In this document: positions 11,109 through 64,000 of the stretch, piece after piece
Position numbering within the stretch: position 1 is the first letter of the stretch
How the letters are laid out: every line of letters begins with the position of its first letter
Assembly (NCBI GenBank): GCA_027036735.1
Contig: JALWDU010000056.1
Coordinates: forward strand, 38,816-102,815
Direction of reading: 5' to 3'
Origin: Aquificales bacterium
Lineage (GTDB): Bacteria > Aquificota > Aquificia > Aquificales > QOAS01
DNA: 64,000 nucleotides
Translations under genes and position numbers: made by a program
The notes under the pieces: model-generated
Told to the model about the DNA's origin: nothing
The model's database searches: none
Seen by the model: the letters and a program-made list of their open reading frames with translations, nothing else

Positions 11109-11113
11109 AGTAA

Positions 11114-12873: not shown

Positions 12874-12876
12874 TAA

Positions 12877-14076: not shown

Positions 14077-14096
14077 AATTATTCACCCCTTTAGGT

Positions 14097-16022: not shown

Positions 16023-16034
16023 TATTTAAACACT

Positions 16035-16692
16035 TTAACTTTGTTCGATAACTTCAATCCATTGCTTTGCAATTTTATCAATATGGAAGTCAAAAGCCCT
16101 TTGAGGAGCTTTTTTTTCATATTCCTTCAATGTTTTTTTCTCCTCCAATAACCCTTCCAAGGTATCTATCCATATTTTTTCTTCCCTTGTTAGTTTTTCG
16201 TTCGCCTTTAACCTCCTCCTCTCAAATGTCGGCATCAATACCCCGTATCTCGCAAACTCCGGTTCCTTTGTTTCCTTCAAAAAGTCCGTATCCGGTGCCA
16301 ATATCTCCCTTGGTCCCGTTCTGCAGTCGCTCGATATTACAGCCTTACCCACTGCCAAACTCTCGGCTACAACATTCGGAAACCCTTCCCATAACGAGCT
16401 AAATACAAATGCTTTAGCCTGCTTTACAAACTTATACGGATTCTTTTGAAATCCCAGAAAATAAACGTCGTATCCTTCGTGCAGTTTATCCCTATCCCAC
16501 ACATAGGTTTTTAATCCTAAATTTTCCGATAACTCTATTAGGTAATTTTTTAACTCACCTTCTCCCAGTAAAACCAGCTTTAGTTCCTTTTGTTTTCTTT
16601 TCAGTTCCTTAAATATCCTCAATAAATACCACTGTCCCTTTTGGAGGGTTAGTCGTCCTATATTTACTAAATAAGGATAATTCTTTAGAAAA
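16035..16692. repeat. Direct repeat copy B (~0.65 kb, GT4 C-terminal domain)
   Basis: Partner of 12877..13540, in the same orientation, 3158 bp away. The copies bracket the AsnB-like gene. Confidence 0.85.
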
Positions 16693-47178: not shown

Positions 47179-49122
47179 TTATTCTTCCTCATTTGCAGTA
47201 TCTTTAATATAAAAAGGCATTTTCTTATAAAGGAGCTCGTATAAGTCAAATGGTCTTCCCGCTAATTGTCCAACATCCCTAGTCCAGGGGGAAAGACTAT
47301 AGTAGCCTATAGCCTTTGTATCGCGCAATTTAAAGATTCTTAAAGGAATTGCTACAAAAATACCTTTATCATGATAGTTTCTATTCGGACCGGAGAAATT
47401 AGAGGTGTTCGAATAAGTATACCAAAAGCCTACTTCGAACCCGTGAACTTCCCGAGAGATTTCAAATCTAATTCCCTTATCCCCTGCTAGAAATCTTCCC
47501 GCTTTAATTTTGAATTTAATTCTAGGCTTTTGAGTTACATAATAGGCTGATATATATTCATCGTGGAATCTCCAATTTCTTAAACCAAAAACCCTATTAG
47601 GGTCTCTTTTATATACATAATCCCCTCCTATACCCACGGCAAATCTTCCATCCCCAAAAAAGTGAATAATATCTCCACCGATTCCGGCAAACATCAATTC
47701 GTTATAACCGGTTGAGATGCTTAAAAATGTATTTTTATAAATACTGTTAATGTAAGATAGCGATAAAACGCTAAAGTTAGGATGCTTTTGACCTAAATAA
47801 TCGGCTATATCGCTTCGAACCGGTTTTGGCATAAGAGGTTTATTTACTGTGCTGATATTATTAATGAATGGTATAAATAGGCTTGCATCTAAACGAAAGT
47901 TGTTAAAGAAATAACTCTCAACCCCTAAATCGATACTAAACATATATTTAAATGCACCGGAAGGGTCGTTAAGAAAAGTTCTCAGTTTCGGATATATAGT
48001 CCATTTATAGGTTATCCAATTTTTATTCCTTACTTTATAGTTATATGCAATTTTTGATTTTGCTTTTTTTAAAAGAGTTTCGTAGTCTTCCTTACCCAAC
48101 AGAAAGTTGTTAATATCCGCTCCGTTAAAAATAAACTCACTAATAGGAATATTTTTTTCCTTTACAATAATCTTAACCTTTCGAATATTCTTAAAATAAA
48201 GAACTTTCAGCACATATAAAATCTTTTTAATTGCAACACTATCAAAAAAATATTTATCAGTTGAGTATTCTATTACTAAGGTATCTCCTAATGTGTATAC
48301 TTCAACATTATCGTATTTAAGCTTTTCTAAAGCTTTTTCATAAAACTCCGTTTGTTTATTTTTTCTAATTAACTCAATATCTTCTTTTGTAAGCCTAAAA
48401 AATCTCTTTTTATGGGGTAACCAAGGTTTTCCCATGGGGAAATTTGCATTAATATTGATTCCATACGTAGTTCCTCTCTGGTAAGAAACCACTATTTGCA
48501 ACCAAGATAAAATTTGATACTTTAACCCTATATTTATCTTTGATTTTACTTCCTTATTTTGTAAACCTTTGAGTTCTTCCTTATTAATAGGAGAATATTC
48601 CAAAATAAATGATAATTTAGGGTGGAGTAAAATTTCACTTCCCGCAAAGAAACCGTTTAAGAGTTTCCCCTTTGCAACTCCAAATGTTAGATTTTCGGGA
48701 ATATAAAAGTCTATATATTTTGAAATTACCAAATATTTTGTATCAAATAGCTTGGTTCCATGGAAATCATCCCAACCTACAGCTATTGCAGGATATTTTC
48801 CTTTCTCGGGTAAAATTTGATATTTAACGAAAAAAGCTTTATCTTTGTATTTACCGTAACCAGACCAATAGTCTGAATTTAAGGTTATGTCTTCTATCTG
48901 TGTAATAACTCCCCCAATTTCTAATCCTGGAAAGAAACCAATATTTATATAACCCCTTAAATATGGATAGACATAGGAAATACCTAATGCCATATTTCCG
49001 TCTTTAACGGTGTAAGCTGTTGGGTTTTCTAATAAACCGGTTCTACCAAAGTTAGATAATATCGGCGTTGCGGACAAAACTGAAGAGGAAAATAAGAAAC
49101 TAGATATTAGAAATTTTTTCAT
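47179..49122 (-). CDS. YjbH/GfcD-like outer-membrane exopolysaccharide protein
   Basis: 647 aa with a signal peptide. The N-terminal FGRTGLLENPTAYTVKDGNMALG matches the YjbH pattern (FGGxGLLxxPTA). Aromatic-rich, beta-barrel-like sequence. Confidence 0.7.
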   Translation of the reverse strand: MKKFLISSFLFSSSVLSATPILSNFGRTGLLENPTAYTVKDGNMALGISYVYPYLRGYINIGFFPGLEIGGVITQIEDITLNSDYWSGYGKYKDKAFFVKYQILPEKGKYPAIAVGWDDFHGTKLFDTKYLVISKYIDFYIPENLTFGVAKGKLLNGFFAGSEILLHPKLSFILEYSPINKEELKGLQNKEVKSKINIGLKYQILSWLQIVVSYQRGTTYGININANFPMGKPWLPHKKRFFRLTKEDIELIRKNKQTEFYEKALEKLKYDNVEVYTLGDTLVIEYSTDKYFFDSVAIKKILYVLKVLYFKNIRKVKIIVKEKNIPISEFIFNGADINNFLLGKEDYETLLKKAKSKIAYNYKVRNKNWITYKWTIYPKLRTFLNDPSGAFKYMFSIDLGVESYFFNNFRLDASLFIPFINNISTVNKPLMPKPVRSDIADYLGQKHPNFSVLSLSYINSIYKNTFLSISTGYNELMFAGIGGDIIHFFGDGRFAVGIGGDYVYKRDPNRVFGLRNWRFHDEYISAYYVTQKPRIKFKIKAGRFLAGDKGIRFEISREVHGFEVGFWYTYSNTSNFSGPNRNYHDKGIFVAIPLRIFKLRDTKAIGYYSLSPWTRDVGQLAGRPFDLYELLYKKMPFYIKDTANEEE

Positions 49123-49140: not shown

Positions 49141-49881
49141 TCAATGGTGTACAGTGGTTGCGTGGTGCACCGTAGTGGTTGCTTCGGTAGTTGCCGCAAC
49201 AACAGCTCCAACTACTCCCGCAGCTATTGCAGCCCCAGCAGCTATAGTAGTAGCTGATACCGCTCCTACACCAACAGCTGCCCCTGCTGCAGTTGCCCCA
49301 GCACCTACACCAGCCGCTGCCGCAGCTCCAGCCGCACTTGCTCCCGCTGCTGCAGTCCCCGCAGCTGCACCTGCTCCTGCTGTGGCGGTACCTGCAGTTG
49401 CTCCGGTTGTTCCAGCAACTGTTCCAGTTGTAGCACCTACTGTAGATGCTCCCGTAGTTCCGGCTGCCGCAGCGCCGGTTGTTCCAGTTGCAGTTCCTAC
49501 GCCACCTGTTGCAGCTCCCGTTGATGCTCCAACAGAAGTTCCCGTACTTCCCGTAGCAATATTTGTTGTAGTTGCTACCTTAGTTGCCTCTACTCCACTG
49601 GTGCTTATACCGTTTACACTGGACTGGGTTGCTATAGATTTAGATACTACATGTGAACTTTTACTTTCCGATAGTTTATGTAGTACCTGTTTCCCTTCCT
49701 TTAAAATATCATAGCCCTTTTTTACTTTTTCAACTTTATTTAATAAACTTTCTTGGTGAAAGGATTCTGACAAAGGAGTGTTGGCTTTTTCGTCAGCTTG
49801 CACGTAGCCACACATAAGAGCCAGGACTATAAAACTTTTAGTTATTAGCCTTACCATAGTTTTAAACCTCCTTATTTCCAA
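49141..49881 (-). CDS. Secreted Thr/Gly/Ala-rich low-complexity protein (GfcA/YjbE-like), C-terminal TTVHHATTVHH
   Basis: 246 aa. Signal-like N-terminus (LITKSFIVLALMCGYVQA) and a structured domain of about 70 aa. About 150 aa of T/G/A/V repeats follow. Operon position is between the Wza-like and YjbH-like genes. The + ORF 49154..49714 is its antisense shadow. Confidence 0.6.
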   Translation of the reverse strand: MEIRRFKTMVRLITKSFIVLALMCGYVQADEKANTPLSESFHQESLLNKVEKVKKGYDILKEGKQVLHKLSESKSSHVVSKSIATQSSVNGISTSGVEATKVATTTNIATGSTGTSVGASTGAATGGVGTATGTTGAAAAGTTGASTVGATTGTVAGTTGATAGTATAGAGAAAGTAAAGASAAGAAAAAGVGAGATAAGAAVGVGAVSATTIAAGAAIAAGVVGAVVAATTEATTTVHHATTVHH

Positions 49882-49884
49882 CTA

Positions 49885-52179
49885 TTATAAATGAGAAATA
49901 GTATAGACTGTAAGCGCGGATTGATAAATTATTTGAACTACATCTTTTATTAGAGGTCTCCACATGATGGGGACTTTTACCTTTGTAGGAACTATAATCG
50001 CATCTCCCGGTTCAAGCCTATATGAGAGTATTTTGTTTTCGGGATTTCCCCACACAAAGCGTTTTTGTTCATCATCCCAAGAAATTAAACTGTTGGAAGT
50101 TTCGGAGGATATAGCCACTCCGTTGGCTTTGATAACAAATATATGGTCTACATCGGCGTATTTTGTTAAACCTCCCGCCAGGGCGATGTAATCTTTAACT
50201 TCTAATTTCGGGTTGTATAGTAAAGCGGAAGGATTTTGAACTTCTCCAAACACAAAAACTTCCGAAGGGATTTTTGGAACGTATATTTTATCTCCGTCTT
50301 CCAGAACAACATTTGAAGGTGATAATCTCAAAGCCTCTAAATTGTTAGGAATATTTAACCCTGCCAATCTACCGGTTACCTGCGTTTTTTCCATCTCTTT
50401 AAGTAGTCTTCTCTGAGCTTCAAAGGAATATTTGTAAGCCCTAACCTGCTCTTCGGTTAGGTCGGCTTGCATTACACCTGCTTCTTCCTTTTCCAAAGTT
50501 GATTTCAATAGAACTATTGCCTTTTGGAGTTTTTCTTTTTGCAATTCCGCTATTGATTGCCTTAACAAAACTATACCTTTTGTGTAAGCTCCCGGTCTAA
50601 AACCGCCTGCCTCCTTAAGGATATCGTAAAGTGTGGTGTTTTCATCGATTTTGTAAACTCCCGGTTTTTTAACCATTCCGGCAACGGTTACTTTGAAAAC
50701 TATCTCGTTTTGGGATACAGGTTTAATAACTATCTCCGTTCCGGGTTTGAGTTGGATATTAAACTTCGGGTTTTTCTTAAATAGAACTTTACCCAAATAG
50801 ATAATTCCTACCTTCTTACCAGTAGGGTCTATAATTTCGGCTTTTAACCTTTTGGGGTCTTCTTTAAACTTTACAGAACCCAAAGCGTCGGCTAAGGTTA
50901 ACCCCGGTTTAAAGGGAATCCATTGGGGTTTATCCACAAAACCGCTGATCTTTACGGGTTTGTAAAAATATTTCGGATATAACACTATACGGTCTAATGG
51001 TTGAAGACTCAAGTTGTATTTTCCATTGAGAACATCTATAGGTCTAAAGGAGATTATTTTTTCCCTTTGGAGTGTCCTTGGATTATACCTCTCCACTTCG
51101 GCATATTCCAAATTTGTATCCTTTAGGAGGTTGTCTACTTTGAGCAAATCTTTAAGTGTTAAATTCGGTTTGTATTGATAAACTCCCGGATAGCGAACAT
51201 AACCGCTTAGGTAAACAACATTTTTGGGAACACTTTTTATTCTAATAATTTGAACTATATCTCCATCTTTTATTTCTGTATCCAATACCTTTGAATTTTC
51301 CAAAGAGGTTTCTAGAACTTTTTCGTTAACTCCGTTTACATATCTATAAATCACAACCTTATGCGTATAAGCCGAGGGCATTAAACTACCGGCGTAGTTA
51401 AGCAAATCCCTTAAAGTGGTTTTTCCCTTTAGCTCATAAATCGCCGGTCTCTTCACATCCCCCACAATCGCGGCGGTTTTTCCAATGGGGTTGACAAGAA
51501 TAACATCGTTATCTTTGAGTCTAATATCGATAGGTTTTCCCTCTATTAGCAGTTGATAGAGGTCTAATTTAAAAACCTTAGTCCCCGAAGGGGTTTTTCT
51601 TGTAAGAATAACATTTCTCAAACTTCCCGTTTTGCTAACGCCTCCAGCAAAACTTAAGGCATCCAATATATTGTTTATTTCACTTGCTATAACGGGACCT
51701 GGTTTATTAACTTCTCCCGAAACGTAAACCACAAATTTCCTAACCTTTCCAAGTGTTACTTTTAATCTAACTCCCAAAGTTTTCGATAAAAGTTCCTGTA
51801 ACTCTTTCAGCGTTAGACCTACTACTGGAAAGGTTCCCACTTGGGGAATTACCAATTGCCCGTCTGTATCAACAATTGTTTTTATTACCGGAGGTAATTG
51901 ACTATCGGGAGGCAATCCCAATAGGTAGATAACAACTTCGTCCCCTATTCCCAAAACGTAATCTTCCGGAAGAGGAACTGAAACTCCTTTAAACTGAAAA
52001 GGTTTCAAAAAAAATCTATAACCAAACTGGTAAATAGGTTGCTTTATCCCTAAGGATTTTAAACGTAAATTGTAATCCTTCTCCAATAAAGAATTTGTTA
52101 TTTTTACATTTGCACTATAGGAGATAGAAGATATAGAACCTATTACTGCAAAACCTAAAAGTATATTGTGAAATTTCAT
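49885..52179 (-). CDS. Polysaccharide export protein (Wza/KpsD family, Poly_export + multiple SLBB domains)
   Basis: 764 aa with a signal peptide. Repeated G-x-V-x-x-P-G-x-Y modules: SGEVNKPGPV, GYVRYPGVYQY, GMVKKPGVYKI, GEVQNPSALLY. Confidence 0.85.
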   Translation of the reverse strand: MKFHNILLGFAVIGSISSISYSANVKITNSLLEKDYNLRLKSLGIKQPIYQFGYRFFLKPFQFKGVSVPLPEDYVLGIGDEVVIYLLGLPPDSQLPPVIKTIVDTDGQLVIPQVGTFPVVGLTLKELQELLSKTLGVRLKVTLGKVRKFVVYVSGEVNKPGPVIASEINNILDALSFAGGVSKTGSLRNVILTRKTPSGTKVFKLDLYQLLIEGKPIDIRLKDNDVILVNPIGKTAAIVGDVKRPAIYELKGKTTLRDLLNYAGSLMPSAYTHKVVIYRYVNGVNEKVLETSLENSKVLDTEIKDGDIVQIIRIKSVPKNVVYLSGYVRYPGVYQYKPNLTLKDLLKVDNLLKDTNLEYAEVERYNPRTLQREKIISFRPIDVLNGKYNLSLQPLDRIVLYPKYFYKPVKISGFVDKPQWIPFKPGLTLADALGSVKFKEDPKRLKAEIIDPTGKKVGIIYLGKVLFKKNPKFNIQLKPGTEIVIKPVSQNEIVFKVTVAGMVKKPGVYKIDENTTLYDILKEAGGFRPGAYTKGIVLLRQSIAELQKEKLQKAIVLLKSTLEKEEAGVMQADLTEEQVRAYKYSFEAQRRLLKEMEKTQVTGRLAGLNIPNNLEALRLSPSNVVLEDGDKIYVPKIPSEVFVFGEVQNPSALLYNPKLEVKDYIALAGGLTKYADVDHIFVIKANGVAISSETSNSLISWDDEQKRFVWGNPENKILSYRLEPGDAIIVPTKVKVPIMWRPLIKDVVQIIYQSALTVYTISHL

Positions 52180-53324
52180 ACCTGTTCCTCCTTTTGCCTT
52201 CTAACATTCTCTAGCCATTCCCTAAAGAAGGCTAAAAATATTCCTAAAAAGAGCCCACTAACTCCGGCAACAGCTAATATAAGAGCCTTTTTAGGTTTAT
52301 AGGGTTCTCTTTTATCGGGAATATAAGGAGGGTCTATAACTTGGAAGGTAATATTCTCCTTTATCTCTTGGGCTTTAGCCGCTTCGTATTGCTGGGCTAA
52401 ATAACTTAGAAGATTAGTCATAAAATCCATTTGCATTTGCAGTTTTTGTAAATTGAACTGATAATCCGGCAAATTTGGATTTTGAACCGTTAAGGTTTTT
52501 AGCTGGTTTAATTCCTTCTTTAGTTCCTGTATTTTTTGAGGATTTACACTTAAAGTTGTATTTTCATTATTTTTCAATAATGATAGGTCTATAATAATGG
52601 GAACTTCTTTAATTTTTCCCGCCAAGAAATCTTTATAAAGTTTCTCAAGAAGTTTTAATTTTTTTATAGCATCCTTTAATTGATTTTCTACAAAAATCCT
52701 ATATTTTTTAGCTAAACTCCAACTTTTTTCATTAAGAATTTTATTAGTTTCCTCCAAAAGTGTTTTTGCTATAACGTAAGCTATTTTGGGATTTTTGGGA
52801 AATTCCACAGTTATTGTTATCACTCCTGTTTTTTTATCGGTAGAAATGGAGATTAAATCTTTCATTTTTTTTATTCCATCCAAAATAGTAGGGGCGTCTT
52901 CGGGATTTTTCCAAGTTTTTGTTTTGTTATCCCATTGGGAGGAGAACAATATAGGCATCAAATTAAGTTTTTTAATAATCCTCTCCTTAATTGTGTTACT
53001 CTTTAAGATAGCCTCAACTGTAAGGCTTTGTGAAGAAGTAGGCAAAGATATCCCAAGAGTTCCAGCTAAAGCACTTAAACCTGTTTGTTGTTGTCCTTGT
53101 AGTGGATATATAGAAGTTTCTGTTTTATAAACGGGGGGGGATATAAGTATGTAAACTATTGCTAATGTTAAAAATACTACAAAAGTTCCTAAAATCCACT
53201 TTGAGCGTTTTTTTAGAATTAACCATAACTCATAGAGGTCTATTTCATCGTCTTCTATATGAGAAGAGGTATATAAAGTTTGCAAATCTTTTAAGTCAGG
53301 TATATTTGTTTTCTTTTTCTGCAA
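52176..53324 (-). CDS. Wzz/polysaccharide co-polymerase (chain-length determinant), no kinase domain
   Basis: 382 aa. DEIDLYELWLILKKRSKWILGTFVVFLTLAIVYILISPPVYKTETSI is the Wzz N-terminal TM motif. Coiled-coil periplasmic region and a C-terminal TM with PKKALILAVAGVSGLFLGI. Confidence 0.8.
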   Translation of the reverse strand: MQKKKTNIPDLKDLQTLYTSSHIEDDEIDLYELWLILKKRSKWILGTFVVFLTLAIVYILISPPVYKTETSIYPLQGQQQTGLSALAGTLGISLPTSSQSLTVEAILKSNTIKERIIKKLNLMPILFSSQWDNKTKTWKNPEDAPTILDGIKKMKDLISISTDKKTGVITITVEFPKNPKIAYVIAKTLLEETNKILNEKSWSLAKKYRIFVENQLKDAIKKLKLLEKLYKDFLAGKIKEVPIIIDLSLLKNNENTTLSVNPQKIQELKKELNQLKTLTVQNPNLPDYQFNLQKLQMQMDFMTNLLSYLAQQYEAAKAQEIKENITFQVIDPPYIPDKREPYKPKKALILAVAGVSGLFLGIFLAFFREWLENVRRQKEEQV

Positions 53325-53395
53325 CCTAACACCCTCCTAAATTATAATTCATTTTAAAAGGTACTTAATTGAAAAGTTCTTAGAATAAAAGGATA

Positions 53396-54184
53396 ATGCT
53401 TGAGAAAATCATAAATATAGCCTTAGAAGCGGGAAAAGAAATTTTAAAAGTCTACAATTCTTTTGATAAATTTGATATAAATTTAAAATCAGATGGTTCT
53501 CCCCTAACACTAGCCGATAAAATCTCAAATGAAATTATACTAAATGGATTAAAAACTGTATCTAATTACCCTATCCTTAGTGAGGAAAGCAAAGAAATAC
53601 CTTTTGAGGAAAGAAAAAATTGGGAAAAGTTTTGGTTGGTAGACCCCTTAGACGGCACCAAGGAATTTATAAAAAAGAACGGAGAGTTCACCGTAAACAT
53701 AGCCCTTATCGATAAAGGTACCCCTATTTTGGGCGTGGTTTATGCACCGGCTAAAAATTGGCTCTATTTTGGCTCATCTGAAGGAGTATTTAAAAAGGAA
53801 GGGGAAAGAATTCTATCCCTCAGGATAAAGAAACCATCAAGCCCAAGTAAAATTAGAGCCGTTGTAAGCAGGTCTCATTTAGATGAGGAAACTCTAAACT
53901 TTCTTTCCTTTTTGGAAAAGCAGACTGGCAAACAGGTAGAAAAAGTTAGTATAGGTTCTTCTCTAAAAATTTGTTATATTCCCGAAGGGAAAGCCGATAT
54001 TTATCCTCGTCTTGCCCCCACTATGGAATGGGATACAGCAGCAGCTCACGCAATTTTAAATTTTGCGGGCGGAAAATTGGTAGAATTCCGAAGAAAAAAT
54101 TTGTTGACAGCACCGGAACTTAAATATAATAAGAAAATATTAAAAAATCCTCCTTTTGTAGCATTTAATCCTTATGCCATTTGA
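53396..54184 (+). CDS. cysQ: 3'(2'),5'-bisphosphate nucleotidase (PAP phosphatase)
   Basis: 262 aa. LSEES, WLVDPLDGTKEF and WDTAAAHAIL inositol-monophosphatase/CysQ motifs. Confidence 0.85.
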   Translation: MLEKIINIALEAGKEILKVYNSFDKFDINLKSDGSPLTLADKISNEIILNGLKTVSNYPILSEESKEIPFEERKNWEKFWLVDPLDGTKEFIKKNGEFTVNIALIDKGTPILGVVYAPAKNWLYFGSSEGVFKKEGERILSLRIKKPSSPSKIRAVVSRSHLDEETLNFLSFLEKQTGKQVEKVSIGSSLKICYIPEGKADIYPRLAPTMEWDTAAAHAILNFAGGKLVEFRRKNLLTAPELKYNKKILKNPPFVAFNPYAI

Positions 54185-55949
54185 AACTTTATTTTTACTA
54201 ATCATATTATTGGGAACAGTAATTTTACTAGTTAAAGGCAACCTTTTACCTTCTACGATTTTTTTCTTTTCCGTTACCCTTTTAGTGCTTTTTAACATAC
54301 TTACACCACAAGAAGCTCTACAGGGATTTTCAAACGTTCAAATAGCCATCATAGTTCTTCTATTAATTATTTCTTATGCAATAGAAAAATTAAAAATATT
54401 GCCCATTTTTTTTGAAAAAATTATAAGCTTTCAATTATCTTACAAAAAGTTTCTTTTAAAGCTAACTTTATTTGTATCCTTATTCTCCTCCATATTAAAT
54501 AATACTCCTATAGTAACCTTATTGATACCTTATCTGGTTGAGTGGAGTAAAAGAAAAGGTATTCCTTTATCGAAAATTCTAATCCCCCTTTCTTATGCCG
54601 CTATTGTAGGGGGAACGGTAACCCTTATAGGAACTTCTACAAATCTTTTAATAGCAGCTCTATATGAACAATATAGTGGAAAACAGTTACATTTTTTGGA
54701 TTTTACACCTATTGGAATATTTCTAGTAATAACTCTTATTTTATACTTTTATTTTTTAGGTTACAAACTACTACCCAATAGAGAAGAACCTATTAAGGAC
54801 TTTATAAAACAGGCAAAAAATTATTTAGTGGAAACCTATGTGCCGGAATCATCTCCATTGATTGGAAAGAGTATAGAAGAAGCCGGACTTAGAAATTTAA
54901 AAGGCTTATTTTTAGCAGAAATAATAAGGGGAAAAAAATTAATAAGACCTGTTAATCCTCAAGAAGTTATTAATAAAGGTGATATTTTAATCTTCGTTGG
55001 GGATACCAAAGCTATAAATGAACTTCTCAACATGAGAATTGGTTTAGAACTCCCCAAAGCTTGTGTTTTACCTTTTCAAAATCTTGATATAGTGGAAGCT
55101 GTCATCCCTTACAATTCTCCTTTGATAGGGAAAAATATTAAGGAACTAAACTTTCGTGCTAAATATGATGCAGCCGTTATAGGTGTCCATAGGGGTGGAG
55201 AATTTCTAAGAGGAAAAATAGGAACCATTAATTTAAAACCAGGGGATTTACTCTTACTTTGGGTTGGAAAAGATTTCTATAAAAAAGTTTCTGAAATTGG
55301 TGATTTTTATGTGATAAATAAAGTAGGCAATCTCTACAAATACTCTATTAAAAAAGGTTTCATTTTATTACTTATTTTCCTTGCAATCGTAATTTTAGCT
55401 TCTTTCCATGTTATACCTTTATTTAAGGGACTTTTACTTTATATACTAATATTGCTTGTTTTGAGAATTTTATCTTTTTCTGAAATAAGGAAAAATTTAG
55501 ATATGAATTTAATTTTTACAGCTGCTCTTTCTTTAGCTTTAGGTAAAGCTGTAATGAATACAGGTTTAGCAGAATATATGTCCTTTTTTATTATAAAGTT
55601 CTCTAAAATTTTTGGAACTATTGGATTATTAATAGCTTTATACTTAATAACATTATTCCTCACCGAATTTGTAACCAATTTAGCGGCAGCTGCGATAATA
55701 TTCCCTATTGCTGTTAATTTGGCAAATCAATTACACATAGATTTAAAACCTTTTGCTTTATTAATAGCATTTGCAGCTTCCGGAAGCTTCATATCTCCTA
55801 TAGGTTATCAAACAAATTTATTGGTTTATTCCCTAGGAAATTACAAATTTACCGACTTTATTAAGGTTGGCTTACCCTTTTCTATTATTTATGGAACTAT
55901 AGTAATAATTTGTATATATATACTTTACTTTTGGAATGAGAATAGTTAA
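54174..55949 (+). CDS. SLC13/DASS-type anion permease with two cytoplasmic TrkA-C domains (candidate sulfate transporter)
   Basis: 591 aa, polytopic. Two central TrkA-C-like repeats (GKSIEEAGLRNLKGLFLAEIIRG...GDILIFVGD and GKNIKELNFRAKYDAAVIGVHRG...GDLLLLWVG). The substrate is inferred from context only. Confidence 0.7.
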   Translation: MPFETLFLLIILLGTVILLVKGNLLPSTIFFFSVTLLVLFNILTPQEALQGFSNVQIAIIVLLLIISYAIEKLKILPIFFEKIISFQLSYKKFLLKLTLFVSLFSSILNNTPIVTLLIPYLVEWSKRKGIPLSKILIPLSYAAIVGGTVTLIGTSTNLLIAALYEQYSGKQLHFLDFTPIGIFLVITLILYFYFLGYKLLPNREEPIKDFIKQAKNYLVETYVPESSPLIGKSIEEAGLRNLKGLFLAEIIRGKKLIRPVNPQEVINKGDILIFVGDTKAINELLNMRIGLELPKACVLPFQNLDIVEAVIPYNSPLIGKNIKELNFRAKYDAAVIGVHRGGEFLRGKIGTINLKPGDLLLLWVGKDFYKKVSEIGDFYVINKVGNLYKYSIKKGFILLLIFLAIVILASFHVIPLFKGLLLYILILLVLRILSFSEIRKNLDMNLIFTAALSLALGKAVMNTGLAEYMSFFIIKFSKIFGTIGLLIALYLITLFLTEFVTNLAAAAIIFPIAVNLANQLHIDLKPFALLIAFAASGSFISPIGYQTNLLVYSLGNYKFTDFIKVGLPFSIIYGTIVIICIYILYFWNENS

Positions 55950-55965
55950 AATTTCATAACTCCTT

Positions 55966-56589
55966 ATGAAAATGAACAAATATATTATTCCACATAAAGG
56001 AAAGGTGACAAAAGAAGACAGGCAAAAACTAAAAGGTCACAAGTCGGTAGTTCTGTGGTTTACCGGATTATCGGGGAGTGGAAAGTCCACAATAGCCCAT
56101 GCTTTAGAAGAAGCGTTATACGAAAGAAAAATACATACTTATATATTGGATGGGGATAATGTGCGAACAGGACTTAATAAAGATTTAGGTTTTACTCCCG
56201 AAGATAGAAAAGAAAATATTAGACGTTTGGGAGAAGTTGCAAAACTTTTTGTCGATGCCGGTATCATTGTAATGGTTGCAGCAATATCCCCCTATAAGAG
56301 TGATAGGTCATTTGTTAGAAATTTATTGGAACCCGGAGAATTTATAGAAATTTATGTAAAGTGTCCTTTGGAAATTTGCGAAAGCAGAGACCCCAAAGGT
56401 TTATATAAAAAAGCTCGTCAAGGTGTCATCAAAAACTTTACAGGTATAGATGCACCCTATGAGGAACCCGAAAATCCCGAAATAGTTATAGAAAGCGATA
56501 AAGAATCTGTAGAGGAGGCGGTTAATAAAATAATCCGCTATTTGGAGGAGAAAAAGATTATTCCAAAGGAGGAAAATAAAAATGCTTAA
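55966..56589 (+). CDS. cysC: Adenylyl-sulfate (APS) kinase
   Basis: 207 aa. [17 protein letters not shown]-loop, LDGDNVR, and ISPY motifs. Confidence 0.92.
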
Positions 56590-57739
56590 GCCACACGGTG
56601 GGATACTGATAAATAAACTGCCTAAGAGTGAAGAAGAAAGAGAGGAATTAACAAAAAAAGCGGAAACTTTAAAAAAATTAACCGTAGGAAAGCGCTACAC
56701 AGCACACTGTGAGATGATAGCGAACGGAGGATATTCTCCCTTAAAAGGTTTTATGACCTATGAAGAAGTCAAAGAGGTAGTAGAAAACCTACATTTACCC
56801 AATGGGTTAATTTGGAGTATTCCTATTCTTCTTCCTGTAAAAGAAGATGAATGGAATTCCTTAAAAGTAGGGGATGAAATAGCCATTTATGATGAATATA
56901 AAAGACCAATAGCTATTATTGTGGTGGAGGATAAATTTACTCTAGATTTAGATTGGTACTGCCGTAATGTATTTAAGACCGATGATGAAAATCATCCTGG
57001 GGTTGCTTTTGTTAAAAGAGACGGAAAATTCTTTATAGGAGGAGAATTGGTTAGATTAATTAACCGTCCTATTAGAGAAAATATAGATGAAAAATACTAT
57101 TTAGACCCTTCGGAGACGAGAGAGGTATTCAAACAAAAAGGATGGAAAAAAATAGTGGCCTTCCAAACTAGAAATCCTATCCACAGAGCTCACGAATATA
57201 TAATCAAATGTGCTTTGGAAACTATGGATGGAGCATTTATCCATCCATTGGTGGGAGAAACAAAAGCCGACGATATTCCAGCCGATGTAAGAATGAAATG
57301 CTATGAAGTTCTAATTGAAAATTATTTCAATAAAGATAGGGTTCATTTAAGCGTATTGCCCGCCCCCATGCACTATGCAGGCCCCAGGGAAGCGGTTCAT
57401 CACATGCTTATGAGGAAAAATTACGGAGCTACCCATATGATTATAGGGAGGGACCATGCGGGGGTTGGTAATTATTACGGAACCTATGAAGCCCAAGAAT
57501 TTGTTGAGCAATTTGTAAACGAGCTAGAAATTCAACCTTTAAAGTTTGAGCATGCATTCTACTGCACCAAGTGTGAAGGTATGGCTACAACCAAAACTTG
57601 CCCGCATCCTAAGGAATTTCATATCCAATTGAGCGGAACCAAAGTTAGACAAATGCTTAGGGAAGGAAAAAAACCTCCCAAAGAATTTTCCAGACCAGAA
57701 GTCGCAAGTGTCCTTATTGAGTGGATTAAAAATAAATAA
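56582..57739 (+). CDS. sat: Sulfate adenylyltransferase (ATP sulfurylase, homo-oligomeric Sat type)
   Basis: 385 aa. [11 protein letters not shown] and IGRDHAGVG motifs. Confidence 0.92.
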
Positions 57740-57746
57740 TTTAATA

Positions 57747-59084
57747 ATGCTAAAATTTCTAAGTAATGTTGACAACAGCTTTAAAGAAATTTTAAAAAAC
57801 TCTATAGTTGCTTTTTTTCTTAAAGTTTTAGGTATTATTAATGGATATATCTTTAGCTTTCTAGTTATAAAAACCCTAGGAGCTAAAGTCTGGGGAGTTT
57901 TTACTATTTTTGTAGCCTTGCTTCAAATAGCTTCTATATTAGGCAGGCTAGGATTTGATACTCTTATTTTACGCTATACTGCTAAATACATTAATAAAAA
58001 TAAACCTGCTATTTTAGCAGTTATTTATAAAAAGACTTTTAATATTATTATAATTTCTTCTACTTTCATTTCTATTTTAATATATTTGCTATCGCCAATA
58101 CTTTCTAATAAAATTTTCCATAACTCCTATCTAACTTATCCTTTTCATATAGTATCCCTTATACTAATTCCATATACTTTGCTACTATTTCATTCAGAAG
58201 GTATTAGAGGTTTAAAAAAAATAAAAGAATATATGTTTTTACAGCAAAGCGGTCTTTTTACAATCTCAATATTAATATTCTATATATTGTTACTTTTTAT
58301 AAATAATAAACTTATACTTCCCATAATATCTTATAGCTTTTCAATCATTTTACTTTCTTTAATTTCTATATATATTTGGTATAAATATACTAAAATAAAT
58401 TTTGTTTTTTATAAAAATTCTAGGTACATCCAAATTTCTTATAAATATCTATTTATTAATGGACTTCCTATACTTTTTGCTAGCTCTTTAACTTTTTTTA
58501 TGAATTGGATAGATATTATAATGTTAGGAATGTTTAGAACCGTTCAAGAAGTTGGTATTTACAATATAACTTTAAAAGTAGCTATGATAATAAGCCTTCC
58601 CTTAACAGCTATAAATACTATTTTAGCACCTAAATTTGCTGAATATTGGGATAAAAGAGATAAAAAAAATTTTTTAAAATTAGCTCAACAGTCAACTAAA
58701 CTAATCTTTTGGACAACCTTACCAGTATTAATTTTATTTCTTCTTTTTCATGATAAAATATTAAGTTTGTTTGGAGAAGATTTTCAAAAAGGGAACTTAG
58801 CTTTACTAATTTTGTTATTGGGTCAATTTATAAATGTCTCTTCCGGAAGCGTAGGAATTATATTATTAATGACAGGACATCAGAAAGCTCATCAAAATAT
58901 TACTTTAACCGGAACTATATTGAATATAATGTTAAACTATTTATTAATTCCATACTATGGAATGTTAGGAGCAGCTATAGCTAATACAGTTACTACTATA
59001 TATTGGAATATTTTGTTTTCAATTAAAGTATATAAAATATTAAATGGATGGATTTTCTATCCACCAATATGGAGGTTTAAATGA
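57747..59084 (+). CDS. wzx: Wzx-type oligosaccharide flippase (MOP superfamily)
   Basis: About 445 aa, polytopic, very AT-rich. I chose ATG 57747, just after the sat stop; the ORF-track start at 57708 overlaps sat. Confidence 0.75.
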   Translation: MLKFLSNVDNSFKEILKNSIVAFFLKVLGIINGYIFSFLVIKTLGAKVWGVFTIFVALLQIASILGRLGFDTLILRYTAKYINKNKPAILAVIYKKTFNIIIISSTFISILIYLLSPILSNKIFHNSYLTYPFHIVSLILIPYTLLLFHSEGIRGLKKIKEYMFLQQSGLFTISILIFYILLLFINNKLILPIISYSFSIILLSLISIYIWYKYTKINFVFYKNSRYIQISYKYLFINGLPILFASSLTFFMNWIDIIMLGMFRTVQEVGIYNITLKVAMIISLPLTAINTILAPKFAEYWDKRDKKNFLKLAQQSTKLIFWTTLPVLILFLLFHDKILSLFGEDFQKGNLALLILLLGQFINVSSGSVGIILLMTGHQKAHQNITLTGTILNIMLNYLLIPYYGMLGAAIANTVTTIYWNILFSIKVYKILNGWIFYPPIWRFK

Positions 59085-59929
59085 AAGAAAAATTACCTAA
59101 TTTCCTAATAATAGGAGTCCCAAAGGCTGGAACTACTTCTGTATACTTTTGGTTGAAACAGCATCCGGAAGTTTTTATGAGCCCTATTAAAGAACCTCAT
59201 TATTTTTCTCAAATAGGTAACAAAGACCATATTACTAAATGGGAGGATTATTTAAAACTTTTTGAAGCAGCAAAACATGAAAAAGTAAGAGGAGAAGCCA
59301 GTACTTCCTATTTTCATTTTTATAAAACCTCTATTCCTCTAATTAAAGAAAAATTGGGGAAACATATAAAATTACTACTTATTTTGAGAAATCCTATAGA
59401 AAGAGCATGGTCACATTATCAGTATTATATCAAATTAGGACGAGAAAATAATAAACCACACAAAGTATTTTCTTATAATTATATTTTACATAATGAACCT
59501 TGGGGAATTAAAAATCCTTATTTAGAATTCAGTTTTTATTCATCAGCTTTAGAAATTTGGTATGAAAATTTTGAAGAAAATTTAAAAGTAATGTTATTTG
59601 AAGATATGAAAAGAAATCCTTTAAATTTTATACAAGAAATTTATGATTTTTTAAATATTAATAATTCATTTATTCCAAAATTTGAAATAAGAAATGTTTC
59701 TGGAAAGCCCCGGAATAAACTCATTAGTAAATTTCTAAGTATAGAGATAATTCAAAAATTAATTCCTTATATTCCTGCTTCCATTAAAAAACCTTTAAGA
59801 AATCTTGTATTAAAAAAGGAAGAAATACCAGAAGACATTAAAGACGAATTAAAAGAAATATATTATAAAGATATTATCAAAACATCTAAAATTATAAATA
59901 AGGATTTATCTTTTTGGTTGGAACTATGA
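59081..59929 (+). CDS. PAPS-dependent sulfotransferase
   Basis: 282 aa. 5'-PSB loop IIGVPKAGTTSV and 3'-PB motif LILRNPIERAWSHY. 4-nt overlap with wzx. Confidence 0.85.
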   Translation: MKEKLPNFLIIGVPKAGTTSVYFWLKQHPEVFMSPIKEPHYFSQIGNKDHITKWEDYLKLFEAAKHEKVRGEASTSYFHFYKTSIPLIKEKLGKHIKLLLILRNPIERAWSHYQYYIKLGRENNKPHKVFSYNYILHNEPWGIKNPYLEFSFYSSALEIWYENFEENLKVMLFEDMKRNPLNFIQEIYDFLNINNSFIPKFEIRNVSGKPRNKLISKFLSIEIIQKLIPYIPASIKKPLRNLVLKKEEIPEDIKDELKEIYYKDIIKTSKIINKDLSFWLEL

Positions 59930-60786
59930 GTATAGAATTTTCTTTAATAATCCCAACTGTAGGAAGGAAAATAGAGCTTGAGCAACTATTAGAAAGCATT
60001 AATTTATTATCTTATAATAAAGATAAACTTGAAGTTATAATAGTAGACCAAAATCCAAAAGGTTTTTTAGATGATATAATAGTAAAATTTAAGGATAAAT
60101 TAAATATCTTACATTTAAGAGTAAATTTTAGAGGAGCTGCAAAGGCAAGGAATTACGGTCTAAAATTTGCAAAAGGGAAATATATACATTTCCCCGATGA
60201 TGATTCCTCTTATGAAAGGGATACTCTAAAAAAAGTTCAAACTTTGTTTGAAACTCATAATTATGATGCTATAGCTGTAAAGGTTTTAGACCCTGAAACA
60301 AAACAAGCAGCTTTATTAAATTTCTCTAATAAAAGAACCTTTATTAATTGTTTTAACTTCTTTAGGCTAACAATAGAGTTTAATACTTTTTGGAAAAAAG
60401 AAATTTTAGTTAACTTAAAAGGTTTTGATGAACGTTTAGGAGTAGGAACTTATTTTTCATCTGAAGAAAGTGGAGATTTAATTTTAAGAGCTTTGAAAAA
60501 AGGCTGCAATATAATATATTGCCCAAACATAATTATATATCATCCAGATAAACGCAATCCTGAAAGTGAAAAAATATTTACATATGCATTGGGATTTGGT
60601 GCTTTATTGCGAAAACATTTGAAAGATAGAAATATATGTATATTACCCTATACAATATCTTATGTTGGGAAATCTATTGTTGGTATTATAATTTTTTCTA
60701 TTCTTAATAGAAGACTTTTTAGAAAATATAAAAATAGATTACTTGGTACATTAAAAGGATATGTGGAGGCAGGAAAAATATTTTAA
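59926..60786 (+). CDS. Glycosyltransferase family 2
   Basis: FSLIIPTVGR...VIIVDQN...FPDDD GT-A motifs. The ATG 59926 overlaps the upstream stop (ATGA). Confidence 0.8.
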   Translation: MSIEFSLIIPTVGRKIELEQLLESINLLSYNKDKLEVIIVDQNPKGFLDDIIVKFKDKLNILHLRVNFRGAAKARNYGLKFAKGKYIHFPDDDSSYERDTLKKVQTLFETHNYDAIAVKVLDPETKQAALLNFSNKRTFINCFNFFRLTIEFNTFWKKEILVNLKGFDERLGVGTYFSSEESGDLILRALKKGCNIIYCPNIIIYHPDKRNPESEKIFTYALGFGALLRKHLKDRNICILPYTISYVGKSIVGIIIFSILNRRLFRKYKNRLLGTLKGYVEAGKIF

Positions 60787-62029
60787 AAGTTTAAATTTAT
60801 TATTTACAATAACCAATCCCTTATTACTAGTAATATTTTTAAATATTGTAGCTCTCATTCTCTTTATATTTATTCCTAATAAATTTGTTAAAGATTTTGC
60901 TTATGAGAATAAAATCTTATCCTATAAAAGTTTTCTTCTTTATATATTATTTATAATATTTTTTAGTCTCGGATATTTATTTGTTCCTTCCTTAAAAAAA
61001 TATAAAAAGAATAGCTTTCTTTTTAAATACCAAATTAGAATGGTATATAAAGAATTAAAATTTTTCGCATACGCTACATTTTTTCTTACAATACTAGGAT
61101 ATTTAATTTGGTTTAAAGATATATATCTACATTTCAATTACTATTTAAGTTTACTACTTACAGTTGGAGCCTATCACATAAGAGACTTACTCTTAGAAAA
61201 AATGATAAGTGGAATTACTACATTTACACAATTTGGAATAATATCCTCAATATTGTTTTTAATAATTTTTTTATTAACAAAAAGGAGAATCTATATTTTA
61301 TTTATTATAATTATTATTATCTTAGCCCTTCTTCGAGTTATTTTCTTTGGAGAAAGATTGGCAGTTTTAGAAATTGTAATTCCTCTTATATTTATTTATT
61401 TGCGTTTCTATCCAGAAAAAACATTAAAATTTCTATTCATTATCTTCCTAGGATTTCTTATTATTTGGTCAACCGAATTATTTCGTTCTTATATGTCTCC
61501 TACATATCATAATGCCTACACTCCATTTGAGTTTTTAATCTACAGATTAGCAATGTATTTTATTACCACTCTAAATAATTGTTTTTTAATCTTTGAAAAA
61601 TTTCCAATATTTACAGATTTTATGCCAGCAACTTTAAAATTTTTTTATAAAATTTTTCATTTACCTAATAATTCACAGTATATATATATAGAACTTTTAA
61701 GCACTAATTTAAATCCGGAATATAATAATAAATCAGCATGGGGTATTTTGTATTTTGATTTTGGTTATTTTGGGTTTATTATAGCTTTTTTAATAGGGGG
61801 TATAACAAGACTATTATATAGTAGCTATAAAAAAGCTAATTTATGGGGTATTATGTTATACCCTATCTTTTTAATCTTTCTCTTTCAATCTTATCGAATT
61901 TTATATATAAATTCCTCTAGAGTTTTTTACCCATACTTAATTATATTTCTACTAATCTTGATTTATTACTTTAAAATAAGCTATTATAAAAAAAATAAAA
62001 AGAAAAGTAACTACCATGCTTTACATTAA
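60761..62029 (+). CDS. wzy: Wzy-like O-antigen/EPS polymerase (polytopic membrane protein)
   Basis: 422 aa with at least 10 TM helices and extreme AT bias. Position is between GTs in a Wzx-containing locus. There is no strong motif, so the assignment rests on context. Confidence 0.55.
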   Translation: MWRQEKYFKSLNLLFTITNPLLLVIFLNIVALILFIFIPNKFVKDFAYENKILSYKSFLLYILFIIFFSLGYLFVPSLKKYKKNSFLFKYQIRMVYKELKFFAYATFFLTILGYLIWFKDIYLHFNYYLSLLLTVGAYHIRDLLLEKMISGITTFTQFGIISSILFLIIFLLTKRRIYILFIIIIIILALLRVIFFGERLAVLEIVIPLIFIYLRFYPEKTLKFLFIIFLGFLIIWSTELFRSYMSPTYHNAYTPFEFLIYRLAMYFITTLNNCFLIFEKFPIFTDFMPATLKFFYKIFHLPNNSQYIYIELLSTNLNPEYNNKSAWGILYFDFGYFGFIIAFLIGGITRLLYSSYKKANLWGIMLYPIFLIFLFQSYRILYINSSRVFYPYLIIFLLILIYYFKISYYKKNKKKSNYHALH

Positions 62030-63068
62030 TGCTCGCTTTCTAACGCAGAAAATAACAGGAACCCAGAGATTTGCTATAGAAATATCAAAGCGGATTATTA
62101 AATATTTAACTTCTACCCAAATAGAATTCCTAGCCCCCAGAAATATAATAAATCGGAAATTAGCAAAAAGCTTTAATCCAAAACTCTTTGGAATATTTAA
62201 AGGACATCTATGGGAACAAATAGATTTACCAATATATTTAAGAAATACGAATGATTCTTTATTACTAAATTTAACAAATACAGGACCTCTATTTTATAGA
62301 AACCAAATAATAACTATTCATGATTTAGCTTTTTTAAGATATCCTCAATGGTTTTCAAAAGCTTTTTATTCTTATTACAAATTTTTAATTCCCAAAATAG
62401 CAAAAAACTCTAAAAAAATTATAACAGTAAGTGAATTTTCAAAAAAGGAACTTATAACATTATTAGACATACCCGAGGAAAAAATAGAGGTAGTATATAA
62501 TGGTGTTTCAGAACTATTCAAATACAATCCTAATCAAAGGAAAGAAAATTTTATATTAGCAGTTTCATCCTTAGATCCACGTAAAAATTTTAAAAGATTA
62601 ATCCTAGCCTTTAAAGAATTAAACTTACAAGATTATAAATTAGTTATTGTTGGTTCAGAAAATAAAATTTTTCGTAATAGTGAGATTAAAACCTTAATTA
62701 AACAAATTCCAAACATTGAATTTACCGGATATATTTCCGATGAAAAGTTAATACAACTATATCAAAAAGCAACTCTTTTTATCTATCCTTCTCTATATGA
62801 AGGATTTGGACTTCCCCCATTAGAGGCAATGGCATGTGGAACGCCTGTTATAGTATCAAATACTGCGAGTCTTCCGGAAATCTGTGGAAGTGCAGCATAT
62901 TATGTTAATCCATATGATAAAAATGATATAGCAAAAGGTATAAAAACACTTTTGGAAAATAAACGGTTACAAAAAGATTTGGTACAAAAAGGCTTGCAAC
63001 ATGTCAAAAAGTTTAATTGGGATAAATCTGCTATAAAGATAACAAATATAATTAATTTACTTACATGA
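62016..63068 (+). CDS. Glycosyltransferase family 4
   Basis: 350 aa. [33 protein letters not shown] is the EX7E region. Confidence 0.88.
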
Positions 63069-63601
63069 ATAGTGTAAAAAAAGTTCTACTAGATATAAAA
63101 GAAGATTTAGTATTTCTTAAGAAGAGATATAATGTAAATTTAATACGGGCTATTCTTTCTAATAGAGGATTTCATGCACTTCTTTTTTACAGAATAGCTA
63201 ATTTTTTATGGAAAAATAAAATTCCTCTTGTACCATTAATTTTAACCAGAATTATACAAATTTTATATAGTATAGATATAGATTATAGAGCTAATATTGA
63301 AGGAGGGGTTATAATAATTCACGGTATTGGTACGGTAATAGGTATGAAAGTTAAGATAGGTAAAGGAACCATAATTTATCATCAAGTTACCCTAGGAATC
63401 AAAATGTCTGGCAAAAATGATGGTTTTCCAAGAATTGGAAAGAATTGCGTATTAGGTGCGGGAGCAAAAATTCTAGGTAATGTTGAAATAGGGAACAATT
63501 CTATAATAGGAGCAAATACTGTTATTACTTTTAATGTCGCTGAAAATAGCATTGTAAAATTTTCCAAAAAAGCTTTAGAAATTAAAATTAAGAGGGAATA
63601 A
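63065..63601 (+). CDS. Hexapeptide-repeat O-acetyltransferase (serine acetyltransferase-like)
   Basis: 178 aa. Left-handed beta-helix repeats (IGKNCVLGAGAKILGNVEIGNNSIIGANTVI) and a CysE-like N-terminal helical region. Confidence 0.8.
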   Translation: MNSVKKVLLDIKEDLVFLKKRYNVNLIRAILSNRGFHALLFYRIANFLWKNKIPLVPLILTRIIQILYSIDIDYRANIEGGVIIIHGIGTVIGMKVKIGKGTIIYHQVTLGIKMSGKNDGFPRIGKNCVLGAGAKILGNVEIGNNSIIGANTVITFNVAENSIVKFSKKALEIKIKRE

Positions 63602-64000
63602 ATGAAAACAGTATTAATTCATGATTGGTTAGTTACATTAGGTGGGGCTGAAAAAGTTTTGGAAAGTATATATGAAATTTATCCTTCTCCGATTTTTACA
63701 CTTGTAAAAAATGATAGAAATCTTATTGGTACTATCTTTGAGAAAGCTAATATAAAAACTTCTTTTATTCAAAGACTACCCAAGGCTAAAACTTTTTACA
63801 GAAACTATCTTCTTTTTTTTCCATTAGCTATAGAGCAATTTGATTTATCGGAATATGATATAATTATATCATCATCACACGCTGTAGCCAAAGGAGTTCT
63901 AACTAATTCAAACCAACTTCATATATGTTATTGCCATACTCCTATCAGATATGCATGGGATTTATATCATAAATACTTAAATGAGACTGGTTTTTCAAAA
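63602..64000 (+). CDS. Glycosyltransferase family 4, N-terminal part (runs off window end)
   Basis: My translation from ATG 63602 is MKTVLIHDWLVTLGGAEKVLESIYEIYP...HTPIRYAWDLYHKYLNE. The IHDWL..GGAEKV start is typical of a GT4 subgroup. The frame is open to the edge (133 codons). Confidence 0.7.
   Translation, partial: MKTVLIHDWLVTLGGAEKVLESIYEIYPSPIFTLVKNDRNLIGTIFEKANIKTSFIQRLPKAKTFYRNYLLFFPLAIEQFDLSEYDIIISSSHAVAKGVLTNSNQLHICYCHTPIRYAWDLYHKYLNETGFSK

Follow-up and report, generated by a model that had tools for sequence, protein, structure and literature searches.

A PAPS-supply cassette in a Wzx/Wzy polysaccharide operon of an Aquificales bacterium points to glycan sulfation

A stretch of 64,000 nucleotides from the genome of an Aquificales bacterium (GenBank assembly GCA_027036735.1, contig JALWDU010000056.1, positions 38,816 to 102,815; hereafter the window) carries a set of genes for supply of 3'-phosphoadenosine 5'-phosphosulfate (PAPS): a 3'-phosphoadenosine 5'-phosphate (PAP) phosphatase (cysQ), an anion permease, an adenosine 5'-phosphosulfate (APS) kinase (cysC) and an ATP sulfurylase (sat), followed directly by genes for a polysaccharide repeat-unit flippase (wzx) and a sulfotransferase. 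The operon probably imports sulfate, makes PAPS and sulfates a repeat unit assembled by a Wzx/Wzy pathway, with CysQ recycling the PAP. Sulfation of a glycan is well supported but not proven. The genes are closely packed into a single operon, the sulfotransferase resembles carbohydrate sulfotransferases in fold and motifs, and in the loci sampled from other genomes the cassette occurs with sulfotransferases and glycan genes and never beside cysH. The same sequence of import, activation and sulfation had been proposed in a preliminary description of this DNA made from its letters and open reading frames (ORFs), and these three independent lines of evidence agree with it.

The ORF list matches that description in the coordinates and the order of the six plus-strand genes between 53396 and 59929, and the enzymes that it named are those recognized by profile searches. 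CysQ (53396-54184), a 3'(2'),5'-bisphosphate nucleotidase converting PAP to AMP, has both metal-binding motifs of its family (WLVDPLDGT and WDTAAA) and scores 271 bits against TIGR01331 (cutoff 229); it falls under the cutoff of a stricter enterobacterial model, NF008182 (245 vs 379). The APS kinase CysC (55966-56589) has the P-loop GLSGSGKS and matches NF003013 (315 bits, cutoff 163) and Pfam APS_kinase (240 bits). Sat (56582-57739), a homo-oligomeric ATP sulfurylase with PUA_2 and ATP-sulfurylase domains, matches NF003166 (533 bits, cutoff 387). Residues 328-342 of Sat contain a motif of three Cys and one His resembling the zinc site described for thermophile ATP sulfurylases without a fused kinase domain.

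The permease (54174-55949) is of the SLC13/CitMHS type, with two cytoplasmic TrkA-C domains. It exceeds the Pfam cutoffs for CitMHS (223 bits) and Na_sulph_symp (58 bits) and has two TrkA_C stretches, and its matches in the Protein Data Bank (PDB) include VcINDY and human SLC13A1. Thus the two TrkA-C domains of the preliminary description stand; its "SLC13-type" is more accurately worded as SLC13-like, since the score against the NCBIfam DASS model TIGR00785 lies under the cutoff (95.5 vs 198.6), the one exception to the scores above curated cutoffs by which the four cassette families are recognized. Residues 535-551 (ASGSFISPIGYQTNLLV) resemble what we take to be a PS01271-type signature. The architecture is like that of the algal SAC1/SLT sulfate transporters (PMC8780407), and the protein is an IT-superfamily permease of SAC1/SLT-like build rather than a certified member of DASS. 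Gene context, this architecture and the presumed signature together suggest that it imports sulfate.

An ATP sulfurylase may also run in the dissimilatory direction, making ATP and sulfate from APS and pyrophosphate within sulfur oxidation, a role that has been proposed in certain chemolithotrophs. Although the enzymes of sulfur oxidisers have the same fold, and functional classes of ATP sulfurylase are inseparable by sequence (PMC3779200), the importer, APS kinase and PAP phosphatase of the operon are unneeded for the reverse reaction, no APS reductase is among the annotated flanking genes, and Thermovibrio ammonificans, a cultured organism with the syntenic cluster, lives by strictly anaerobic oxidation of hydrogen coupled to reduction of nitrate or sulfur. 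A dissimilatory role for this Sat is therefore extremely improbable.

The cassette continues on the plus strand into wzx (57747-59084, with an alternative GTG start at 57708; Polysacc_synt 54 bits and MatE 57 bits, in keeping with the earlier flippase assignment), the sulfotransferase gene (59081-59929), a GT2 glycosyltransferase (59926-60786; Glycos_transf_2, 75 bits), the repeat-unit polymerase gene wzy (60761-62029; TIGR04370, 84.5 bits, cutoff 40), a GT4 glycosyltransferase (62016-63068; Glycos_transf_1, 137 bits), a hexapeptide-repeat O-acetyltransferase (63065-63601) and the 5' part of a second GT4 gene (63602-64000), which is cut by the window end. A metagenome scaffold (L001) that is 100% identical to the window across the shared 13 kb, and on which Wzx was called as 445 aa and the GT2 start was placed, completes the second GT4 and continues with ManC/phosphomannose isomerase (PMI), a Bac_transf priming transferase (244 bits) and an epimerase/dehydratase. 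The downstream GT2, Wzy-like, GT4 and O-acetyltransferase genes of the preliminary description are thus all accounted for. From cysQ to the second GT4, the junctions measure -11, +16, -8, +7, -4, -4, -26, -14, -4 and 0 nt, and since every pair overlaps or lies no more than 16 nt apart, the genes form one operon. The region is best explained as the promoter-proximal part of one long operon that starts with cysQ and reaches the priming transferase or beyond, in which ATP sulfurylase, APS kinase, PAP phosphatase, anion permease and sulfotransferase are integrated into a single glycan cluster. The 71-bp gap upstream of cysQ (53325-53395), which separates this operon from a divergent export operon, presumably carries the promoters of both; one sigma-70-like match was found at 53369-53397, in a scan with no excess of sites over shuffled sequences (64 vs 61.9 for promoters; 7 vs 5.8 for terminators). 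An Rfam scan of the window gave no match, so there is no SAM or T-box riboswitch upstream of the cassette.

The 282-aa sulfotransferase exceeds the cutoffs of both PF00685 Sulfotransfer_1 (57.4 bits, cutoff 22) and PF13469 Sulfotransfer_3 (35.6 bits, cutoff 27). The two PAPS-binding motifs noticed previously fall at residues 14-20 (PKAGTTS, the 5'-phosphosulfate-binding or 5'-PSB motif, between a strand at 8-10 and a helix at 18-26) and 103-111 (RNPIERAWS, the 3'-phosphate-binding or 3'-PB motif, after a strand at 97-102). In an AlphaFold model built from 39 homologues (pLDDT 92.9, pTM 0.88), both are predicted to lie on the expected strand-loop-helix elements. G17, T18, K37, E38, R103, P105 and R108 are invariant in the 39 homologues, and T19, S20 and S111 are at least 90% conserved. 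The segment KEPHYF aligns with QEIHFF of the heparan sulfate (HS) 3-O-sulfotransferase 3-OST-5, with E38 at the position of the Glu of the 3-OST EIHFF motif, which is the catalytic base.

Searches of the PDB by sequence matched an Alicyclobacillus sulfotransferase (3rnl, 9e-35) and the HS 3-OSTs and NDST1 (1e-8 to 4e-11). By structure, the best Foldseek match of the model was again 3rnl (E 1.5e-16, TM 0.74), followed by 3-OST-1/3/5 and NDST1 (TM 0.63-0.72), some of the matched 3-OST structures holding bound PAP and oligosaccharide, whereas cytosolic SULTs and tyrosylprotein sulfotransferases (TPSTs) reached only ~0.4. The protein has in common with the HS 3-OSTs, NDST1 and 3rnl the fold, the 5'-PSB and 3'-PB motifs and the position of the Glu-x-His catalytic motif, but identity in the Foldseek alignments is only ~20-24%, and the C-terminal third (residues ~200-282) can be aligned with 3rnl only. 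The model and motifs thus argue for a PAPS-dependent enzyme of the carbohydrate branch that resembles HS 3-OSTs and N-sulfotransferases. Because it has neither a signal peptide nor a transmembrane segment, it is expected in the cytoplasm, where PAPS is made, and it may act on the lipid-linked repeat unit before flipping.

A scan for Sat in GTDB species-representative genomes, a set without the genome of the window, gave 80 loci, to which the T. ammonificans locus was added; the window proteins were mapped onto all 81, sulfotransferase-like ORFs were detected by jackhmmer, and CysH was detected by the ECG[LI]H signature of APS/PAPS reductases. Sulfotransferase-like ORFs occur in 9 of the 21 loci with the full cassette and 2 of the 58 others (p = 5.6e-5), and the CysH signature in none of the 21 and 17 of the 58 (p = 0.004), p-values that are indicative only, the loci being phylogenetically non-independent. 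All 17 loci with the signature belong to Staphylococcus or Bacillaceae and have Sat and CysC only; 26 loci are of that type, and they serve as a positive control. The signature is absent from the window, and judged by it no APS/PAPS reductase gene adjoins sat there or in the 21 cassette loci. No locus of the sample shows both contexts, and that of the window is of the sulfation type.

Sat and CysC catalyse the two opening reactions of PAPS-dependent sulfate assimilation, and they might simply provide PAPS for reductases encoded elsewhere, their glycan neighbours being incidental. The evidence above is at the level of loci, the search having covered the window and the sampled loci, and the genome paper on T. 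ammonificans labels its single-copy "Aps" as sulfur assimilation (Giovannelli et al. 2017), without mention of a sulfotransferase or a sulfated glycan for the orthologues in strain HB-1. The distribution of the CysH signature argues the other way, as do the junctions around wzx (a gap of 7 nt after sat and an overlap of 4 nt with the sulfotransferase gene) and the way in which the cassette adjoins glycan genes or sulfotransferases in several distinct chromosomal settings. The carrier organisms, moreover, inhabit sulfidic environments. In the published proteome of T. ammonificans, CysQ (Theam_0663), Sat (Theam_0666) and a GT4 of the cluster (Theam_0671) were detected, together with CysK, which provides a direct route from sulfide to cysteine, and neither a PAPS/APS reductase nor a sulfite reductase is named in the protein list; these data weakly suggest that the cluster is expressed and that sulfide is used directly. 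Theam_1000, annotated "NirA", was considered as a sulfite reductase and rejected because it is a FAD-dependent oxidoreductase, not a siroheme enzyme. Ordinary assimilation is, on this evidence, a quite unlikely function of the operon.

In T. ammonificans HB-1, genes Theam_0663 to ~Theam_0674 (CP002444.1, 613.6-625.5 kb) have the same 12-gene order as the window and its continuation: cysQ, permease, cysC, sat, wzx, sulfotransferase, GT2, wzy, GT4, an acetyltransferase pseudogene, GT4 and priming phosphoglycosyl transferase (PGT). Identity to the proteins of the window is highest for Sat (78%), PGT (74%), CysC (70%) and the second GT4 (66%), and lower for the sulfotransferase (59%), Wzy (50%) and Wzx (35%). 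The HB-1 locus has no manC, and is flanked by comEC and aspS where that of the window is flanked by Wzz and Wza genes. In a related metagenome-assembled genome (MAG; L086/L087), the cluster has the same order but lacks the acetyltransferase gene.

The preliminary description suggested comparing gene neighbourhoods, and the cassette does recur beside glycan genes, across Aquificota and Bacillaceae alike. The relatives with 74-84% identity all carry an Aquificota label, except for one contig that is probably mis-binned. Nine Aquificota loci, that of T. ammonificans included, possess the four-gene cassette. In the loci with enough flanking sequence, it is followed by wzx (L007, L013 and L014), by a sulfotransferase and an epimerase (L006), or by a priming transferase, a GT4 and a Wzy_C protein (L008); two other Aquificota loci (L015 and L011) have Sat without the cassette, also within glycan operons. 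Since the core genes upstream differ between loci, the cassette appears to move together with the glycan genes. At 10060-10980 in L008, after the priming transferase, lies an unannotated gene for a 306-aa protein whose SRSGTT and REPxxxxxS motifs resemble PAPS-binding motifs; it has no match in Pfam and no sequence match in the PDB, and is a candidate divergent sulfotransferase on the strength of its motifs. On a 12-kb contig without a PAPS cassette (L088, 842-12141), a relative of the wzx-sulfotransferase-GT2-GT4-GT4-ManC block has as neighbours an EpsI-family protein and another sulfotransferase, which belongs to a different family (Sulfotransfer_4).

In halophilic Bacillaceae the four families recur, ordered Sat-permease-CysC-CysQ and adjoining sulfotransferases (L029, 1214-13520; L028, 1828-12389; also L020, L022, L036 and L072). 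In L029 the cassette is inside a complete Wzx/Wzy cluster, and L022 has two copies of Sat in one locus. Thalassobacillus devorans has the order epimerase-Wzy-Wzx-GT4-sulfotransferase-PGT-Sat-permease-CysC-CysQ, and in another Thalassobacillus two sulfotransferases precede the cassette. Homologues of the sulfotransferase adjoin wzx in both Bacillaceae and anammox clusters. The anammox example, Candidatus Jettenia caeni (L090, 2988-16749), has a distant homologue (36% identity) following wzx, in a Wzx/Wzy cluster with two tandem sulfotransferases.

The AT-rich polysaccharide island of the window extends from 47179 to beyond 64000 and holds every component of a Wzx/Wzy-dependent capsule or exopolysaccharide (EPS) pathway: priming phosphoglycosyl transferase, Wzx, Wzy, polysaccharide co-polymerase and outer-membrane polysaccharide export protein (OPX). 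Four export-related genes on the minus strand are divergent from the biosynthesis operon. Nearest to it is a Wzz/GNVR polysaccharide co-polymerase without a kinase domain (52176-53324; Wzz 60 bits, GNVR 35 bits), followed by a 764-aa Wza-like OPX protein (49885-52179; Poly_export with five SLBB and four SLBB_2 stretches), an Ala/Gly/Thr-rich protein of 246 aa with an N-terminus resembling a signal peptide (49141-49881), and a YjbH/GfcD-like outer-membrane protein (47179-49122; YjbH, 410 bits) that forms the left edge of the island, next to an AmiC-like amidase gene. The 246-aa protein has no match in Pfam or PADLOC; the G+C content of its gene (0.49, and 0.26 at third codon positions, GC3) fits coding on the minus strand, and we presume from its composition a resemblance to E. 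coli YjbE/GfcA. The GC-rich repeat probably accounts for an antisense ORF of 186 aa opposite this gene (49154-49714).

The sulfated product might be a lipopolysaccharide (LPS) O-antigen, a protein-linked glycan or a glycolipid rather than free EPS or capsule. Wzx/Wzy clusters make O-antigens too, rhizobial and mycobacterial sulfotransferases use lipo-oligosaccharides and glycolipids, the relatives L008 and L015 encode Wzy_C (O-antigen ligase-like) proteins, and there is no Wza-like gene within 10 kb of the T. ammonificans cluster. Such a product nevertheless seems unlikely for the window, where the operon is transcribed away from adjoining Wzz, Wza-like and YjbH-like genes typical of capsule and EPS secretion, the sulfotransferase gene is tied to the repeat unit by its overlaps with the wzx and GT2 genes, and a separate O-antigen-like cluster is present at 6.3-19.5 kb. 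That second AT-rich glycan cluster (6279-19489), distinct from the PAPS island, encodes a PglF-like dehydratase, a Bac_transf protein, two DegT aminotransferases, a GNAT protein, three GT4s, an AsnB-type amidotransferase and an FkbM methyltransferase, and has the appearance of a locus for an amino-sugar O-antigen or for glycosylation.

The CysE/EpsC-like acetyltransferase of the operon was considered as a hint of cysteine synthesis and rejected: it scores under both curated cutoffs, lies between two GT4 genes, has as its orthologue in HB-1 (L004, ~14014-14561) a pseudogene with two in-frame stop codons, and is absent from L086 and L087. This pattern implies that O-acetylation of the polymer varies between strains, and the enzyme is best regarded as one of optional decoration.

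Under the preferred reading, glycan sulfation, the SLC13-like permease would bring in sulfate, as its context and architecture suggest; Sat would convert it to APS and CysC would convert APS to PAPS, as their family membership above curated cutoffs predicts. The cytoplasmic sulfotransferase would then transfer the sulfuryl group of PAPS to a hydroxyl on one of the sugars of the repeat unit, itself linked to undecaprenyl diphosphate, which may be built by the Bac_transf priming enzyme, the GT2 and the two GT4s, would probably include mannose (to judge from ManC) and may be O-acetylated. CysQ, by its family, would hydrolyse the inhibitory product PAP. Finally, Wzx would flip the unit, Wzy would polymerise it, and the Wzz, Wza-like and YjbH-like proteins may export the polymer as capsule or EPS.

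Several points weigh against this reading. The PAPS of the operon could possibly feed assimilation as well, and the published label of the T. ammonificans orthologues, with one "aps" listed, is sulfur assimilation. The specificity of the permease for sulfate is a prediction for a protein under the DASS cutoff, whose presumed signature dicarboxylate carriers also have. Some cassette loci, such as L013, have no sulfotransferase within 8 kb. A search of the literature on sulfotransferases in Aquificae and on sulfate assimilation in Desulfurobacteriaceae found nothing relevant, and no sulfated polymer from Aquificota was found in the literature searched.

The base composition of the island is foreign to the genome, as the preliminary description had noted when it suggested horizontal acquisition. 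Core genes of the window have G+C contents of 0.49-0.54 (GC3 0.58-0.66), whereas those of the PAPS cassette have 0.29-0.38 (GC3 0.21-0.32) and the glycan genes 0.22-0.28 (GC3 0.14-0.18); G+C drops from ~0.50 to ~0.32 at the YjbH-like gene. The same two layers are evident in the GC3 of T. ammonificans (core ~0.65, cassette 0.40-0.58, glycan genes 0.22-0.30). The RNase Y of the host (40372-42078) matches proteins of uncultured "Aquificales" MAGs at 99-100% identity and that of Aquifex aeolicus VF5 at 63%, with no Thermovibrio among its best 120 matches. The core of the host is thus Aquificales-like, yet the closest cultured carrier of the cluster at 53396-64000 is a member of the Desulfurobacteriaceae, T. 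ammonificans, so that the affinity of RNase Y conflicts with the synteny of the island. Foreign composition and an island common to distantly related Aquificota indicate that it was probably acquired horizontally, and transfer between Aquificota lineages is the simplest supported reading. Two further genes of the window stand apart from recognized families: a 583-aa ORF on the minus strand (31129-32880), in an islet of G+C ~0.29 between core genes, has no match in Pfam, NCBIfam or PADLOC, and a 602-aa protein on the plus strand (44366-46174) belongs to no Pfam or NCBIfam family and in PADLOC resembles only mad8 and HerA-like ATPases, weakly.

Glycan sulfation would change how the only Sat and CysC in the T. 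ammonificans genome paper are read, from assimilation to synthesis of a surface polymer. It predicts a sulfated, heat-stable polysaccharide in Aquificota of deep-sea vents, a prediction that bears on biofilms and the binding of minerals at vents and on the search for microbes that produce sulfated polysaccharides, and is directly testable because the cultured and sequenced strain HB-1 holds the syntenic cluster. It also offers a genomic rule for recognizing Sat and CysC of the sulfation type: permease and CysQ are present, cysH is absent, and a sulfotransferase is nearby. A bolder proposal, made tentatively, is that thermophilic Aquificota, anaerobic and bathed in sulfide, take up and activate sulfate solely for sulfation of surface polysaccharides, by means of a mobile Sat-permease-CysC-CysQ cassette also found in halophilic Bacillaceae. 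If that were true, thermophilic chemolithoautotrophic bacteria would have yielded their first sulfated polysaccharide, and the "sulfur assimilation" label of T. ammonificans would be overturned.

Genes for PAPS synthesis lie beside a sulfotransferase in the rhizobial NodPQ/NodH and Xanthomonas RaxPQ/RaxST systems, in which a secreted product is sulfated independently of assimilation. These systems use CysDN-type enzymes without a permease or CysQ, whereas the window has Sat, a permease and CysQ, and their substrates are a lipo-chitooligosaccharide or a peptide, whereas a polysaccharide repeat unit is proposed here. The xss cluster of Synechocystis PCC 6803 is closer in its assembly pathway: it directs synthesis of synechan, a genetically supported sulfated EPS, by a Wzx/Wzy route with the sulfotransferases XssA and XssE (PMC8205485). 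In that system the lipid-linked repeat unit is the presumed substrate of sulfation, as is proposed for the window, but the xss paper makes no mention of PAPS, CysQ or sulfate adenylyltransferase and describes no genes for PAPS supply. The plasmid pSYSM was absent among the listed plasmid tblastn matches to the sulfotransferase of the window, a comparison that shows no close relationship to XssA or XssE.

The nearest precedent is the capsule cluster of Cobetia marina KMM 1449, which contains cysN/C, cysD, cysQ, a sulfate permease and a sulfotransferase, and whose product has a sulfate ester, Rha2S, shown by NMR (PMC11766843). It follows the same logic, from uptake to recycling within a polysaccharide cluster, so that the design principle is already published and the novelty of the present locus is modest. 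The statement in the preliminary description that sulfated bacterial polysaccharides with dedicated gene clusters are reported for only a few groups is weakened by this example, by the wzx-sulfotransferase homologues of anammox bacteria and Bacillaceae, and by the public genome of T. ammonificans. What is new is the phylum and the thermophilic setting, the Sat-type enzyme set with its SLC13/TrkA-C permease, the close co-directional packing with wzx and the sulfotransferase gene, the finding of one cassette in both Aquificota and Bacillaceae, and the disagreement with the annotation published for T. ammonificans. The sulfated product of Cobetia marina, a mesophilic marine gammaproteobacterium, has been demonstrated chemically, whereas that of the window, whose host is a thermophilic member of the Aquificota, is predicted from the genes. 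Cobetia marina employs a heterodimeric CysD/CysN-CysC enzyme and assembly by an ABC transporter (Kps), whereas the window encodes a homo-oligomeric Sat with a separate CysC, a permease of SLC13/TrkA-C architecture and a Wzx/Wzy pathway, and its PAPS genes are further set apart by being co-directional with wzx and the sulfotransferase gene at gaps of no more than 16 nt.

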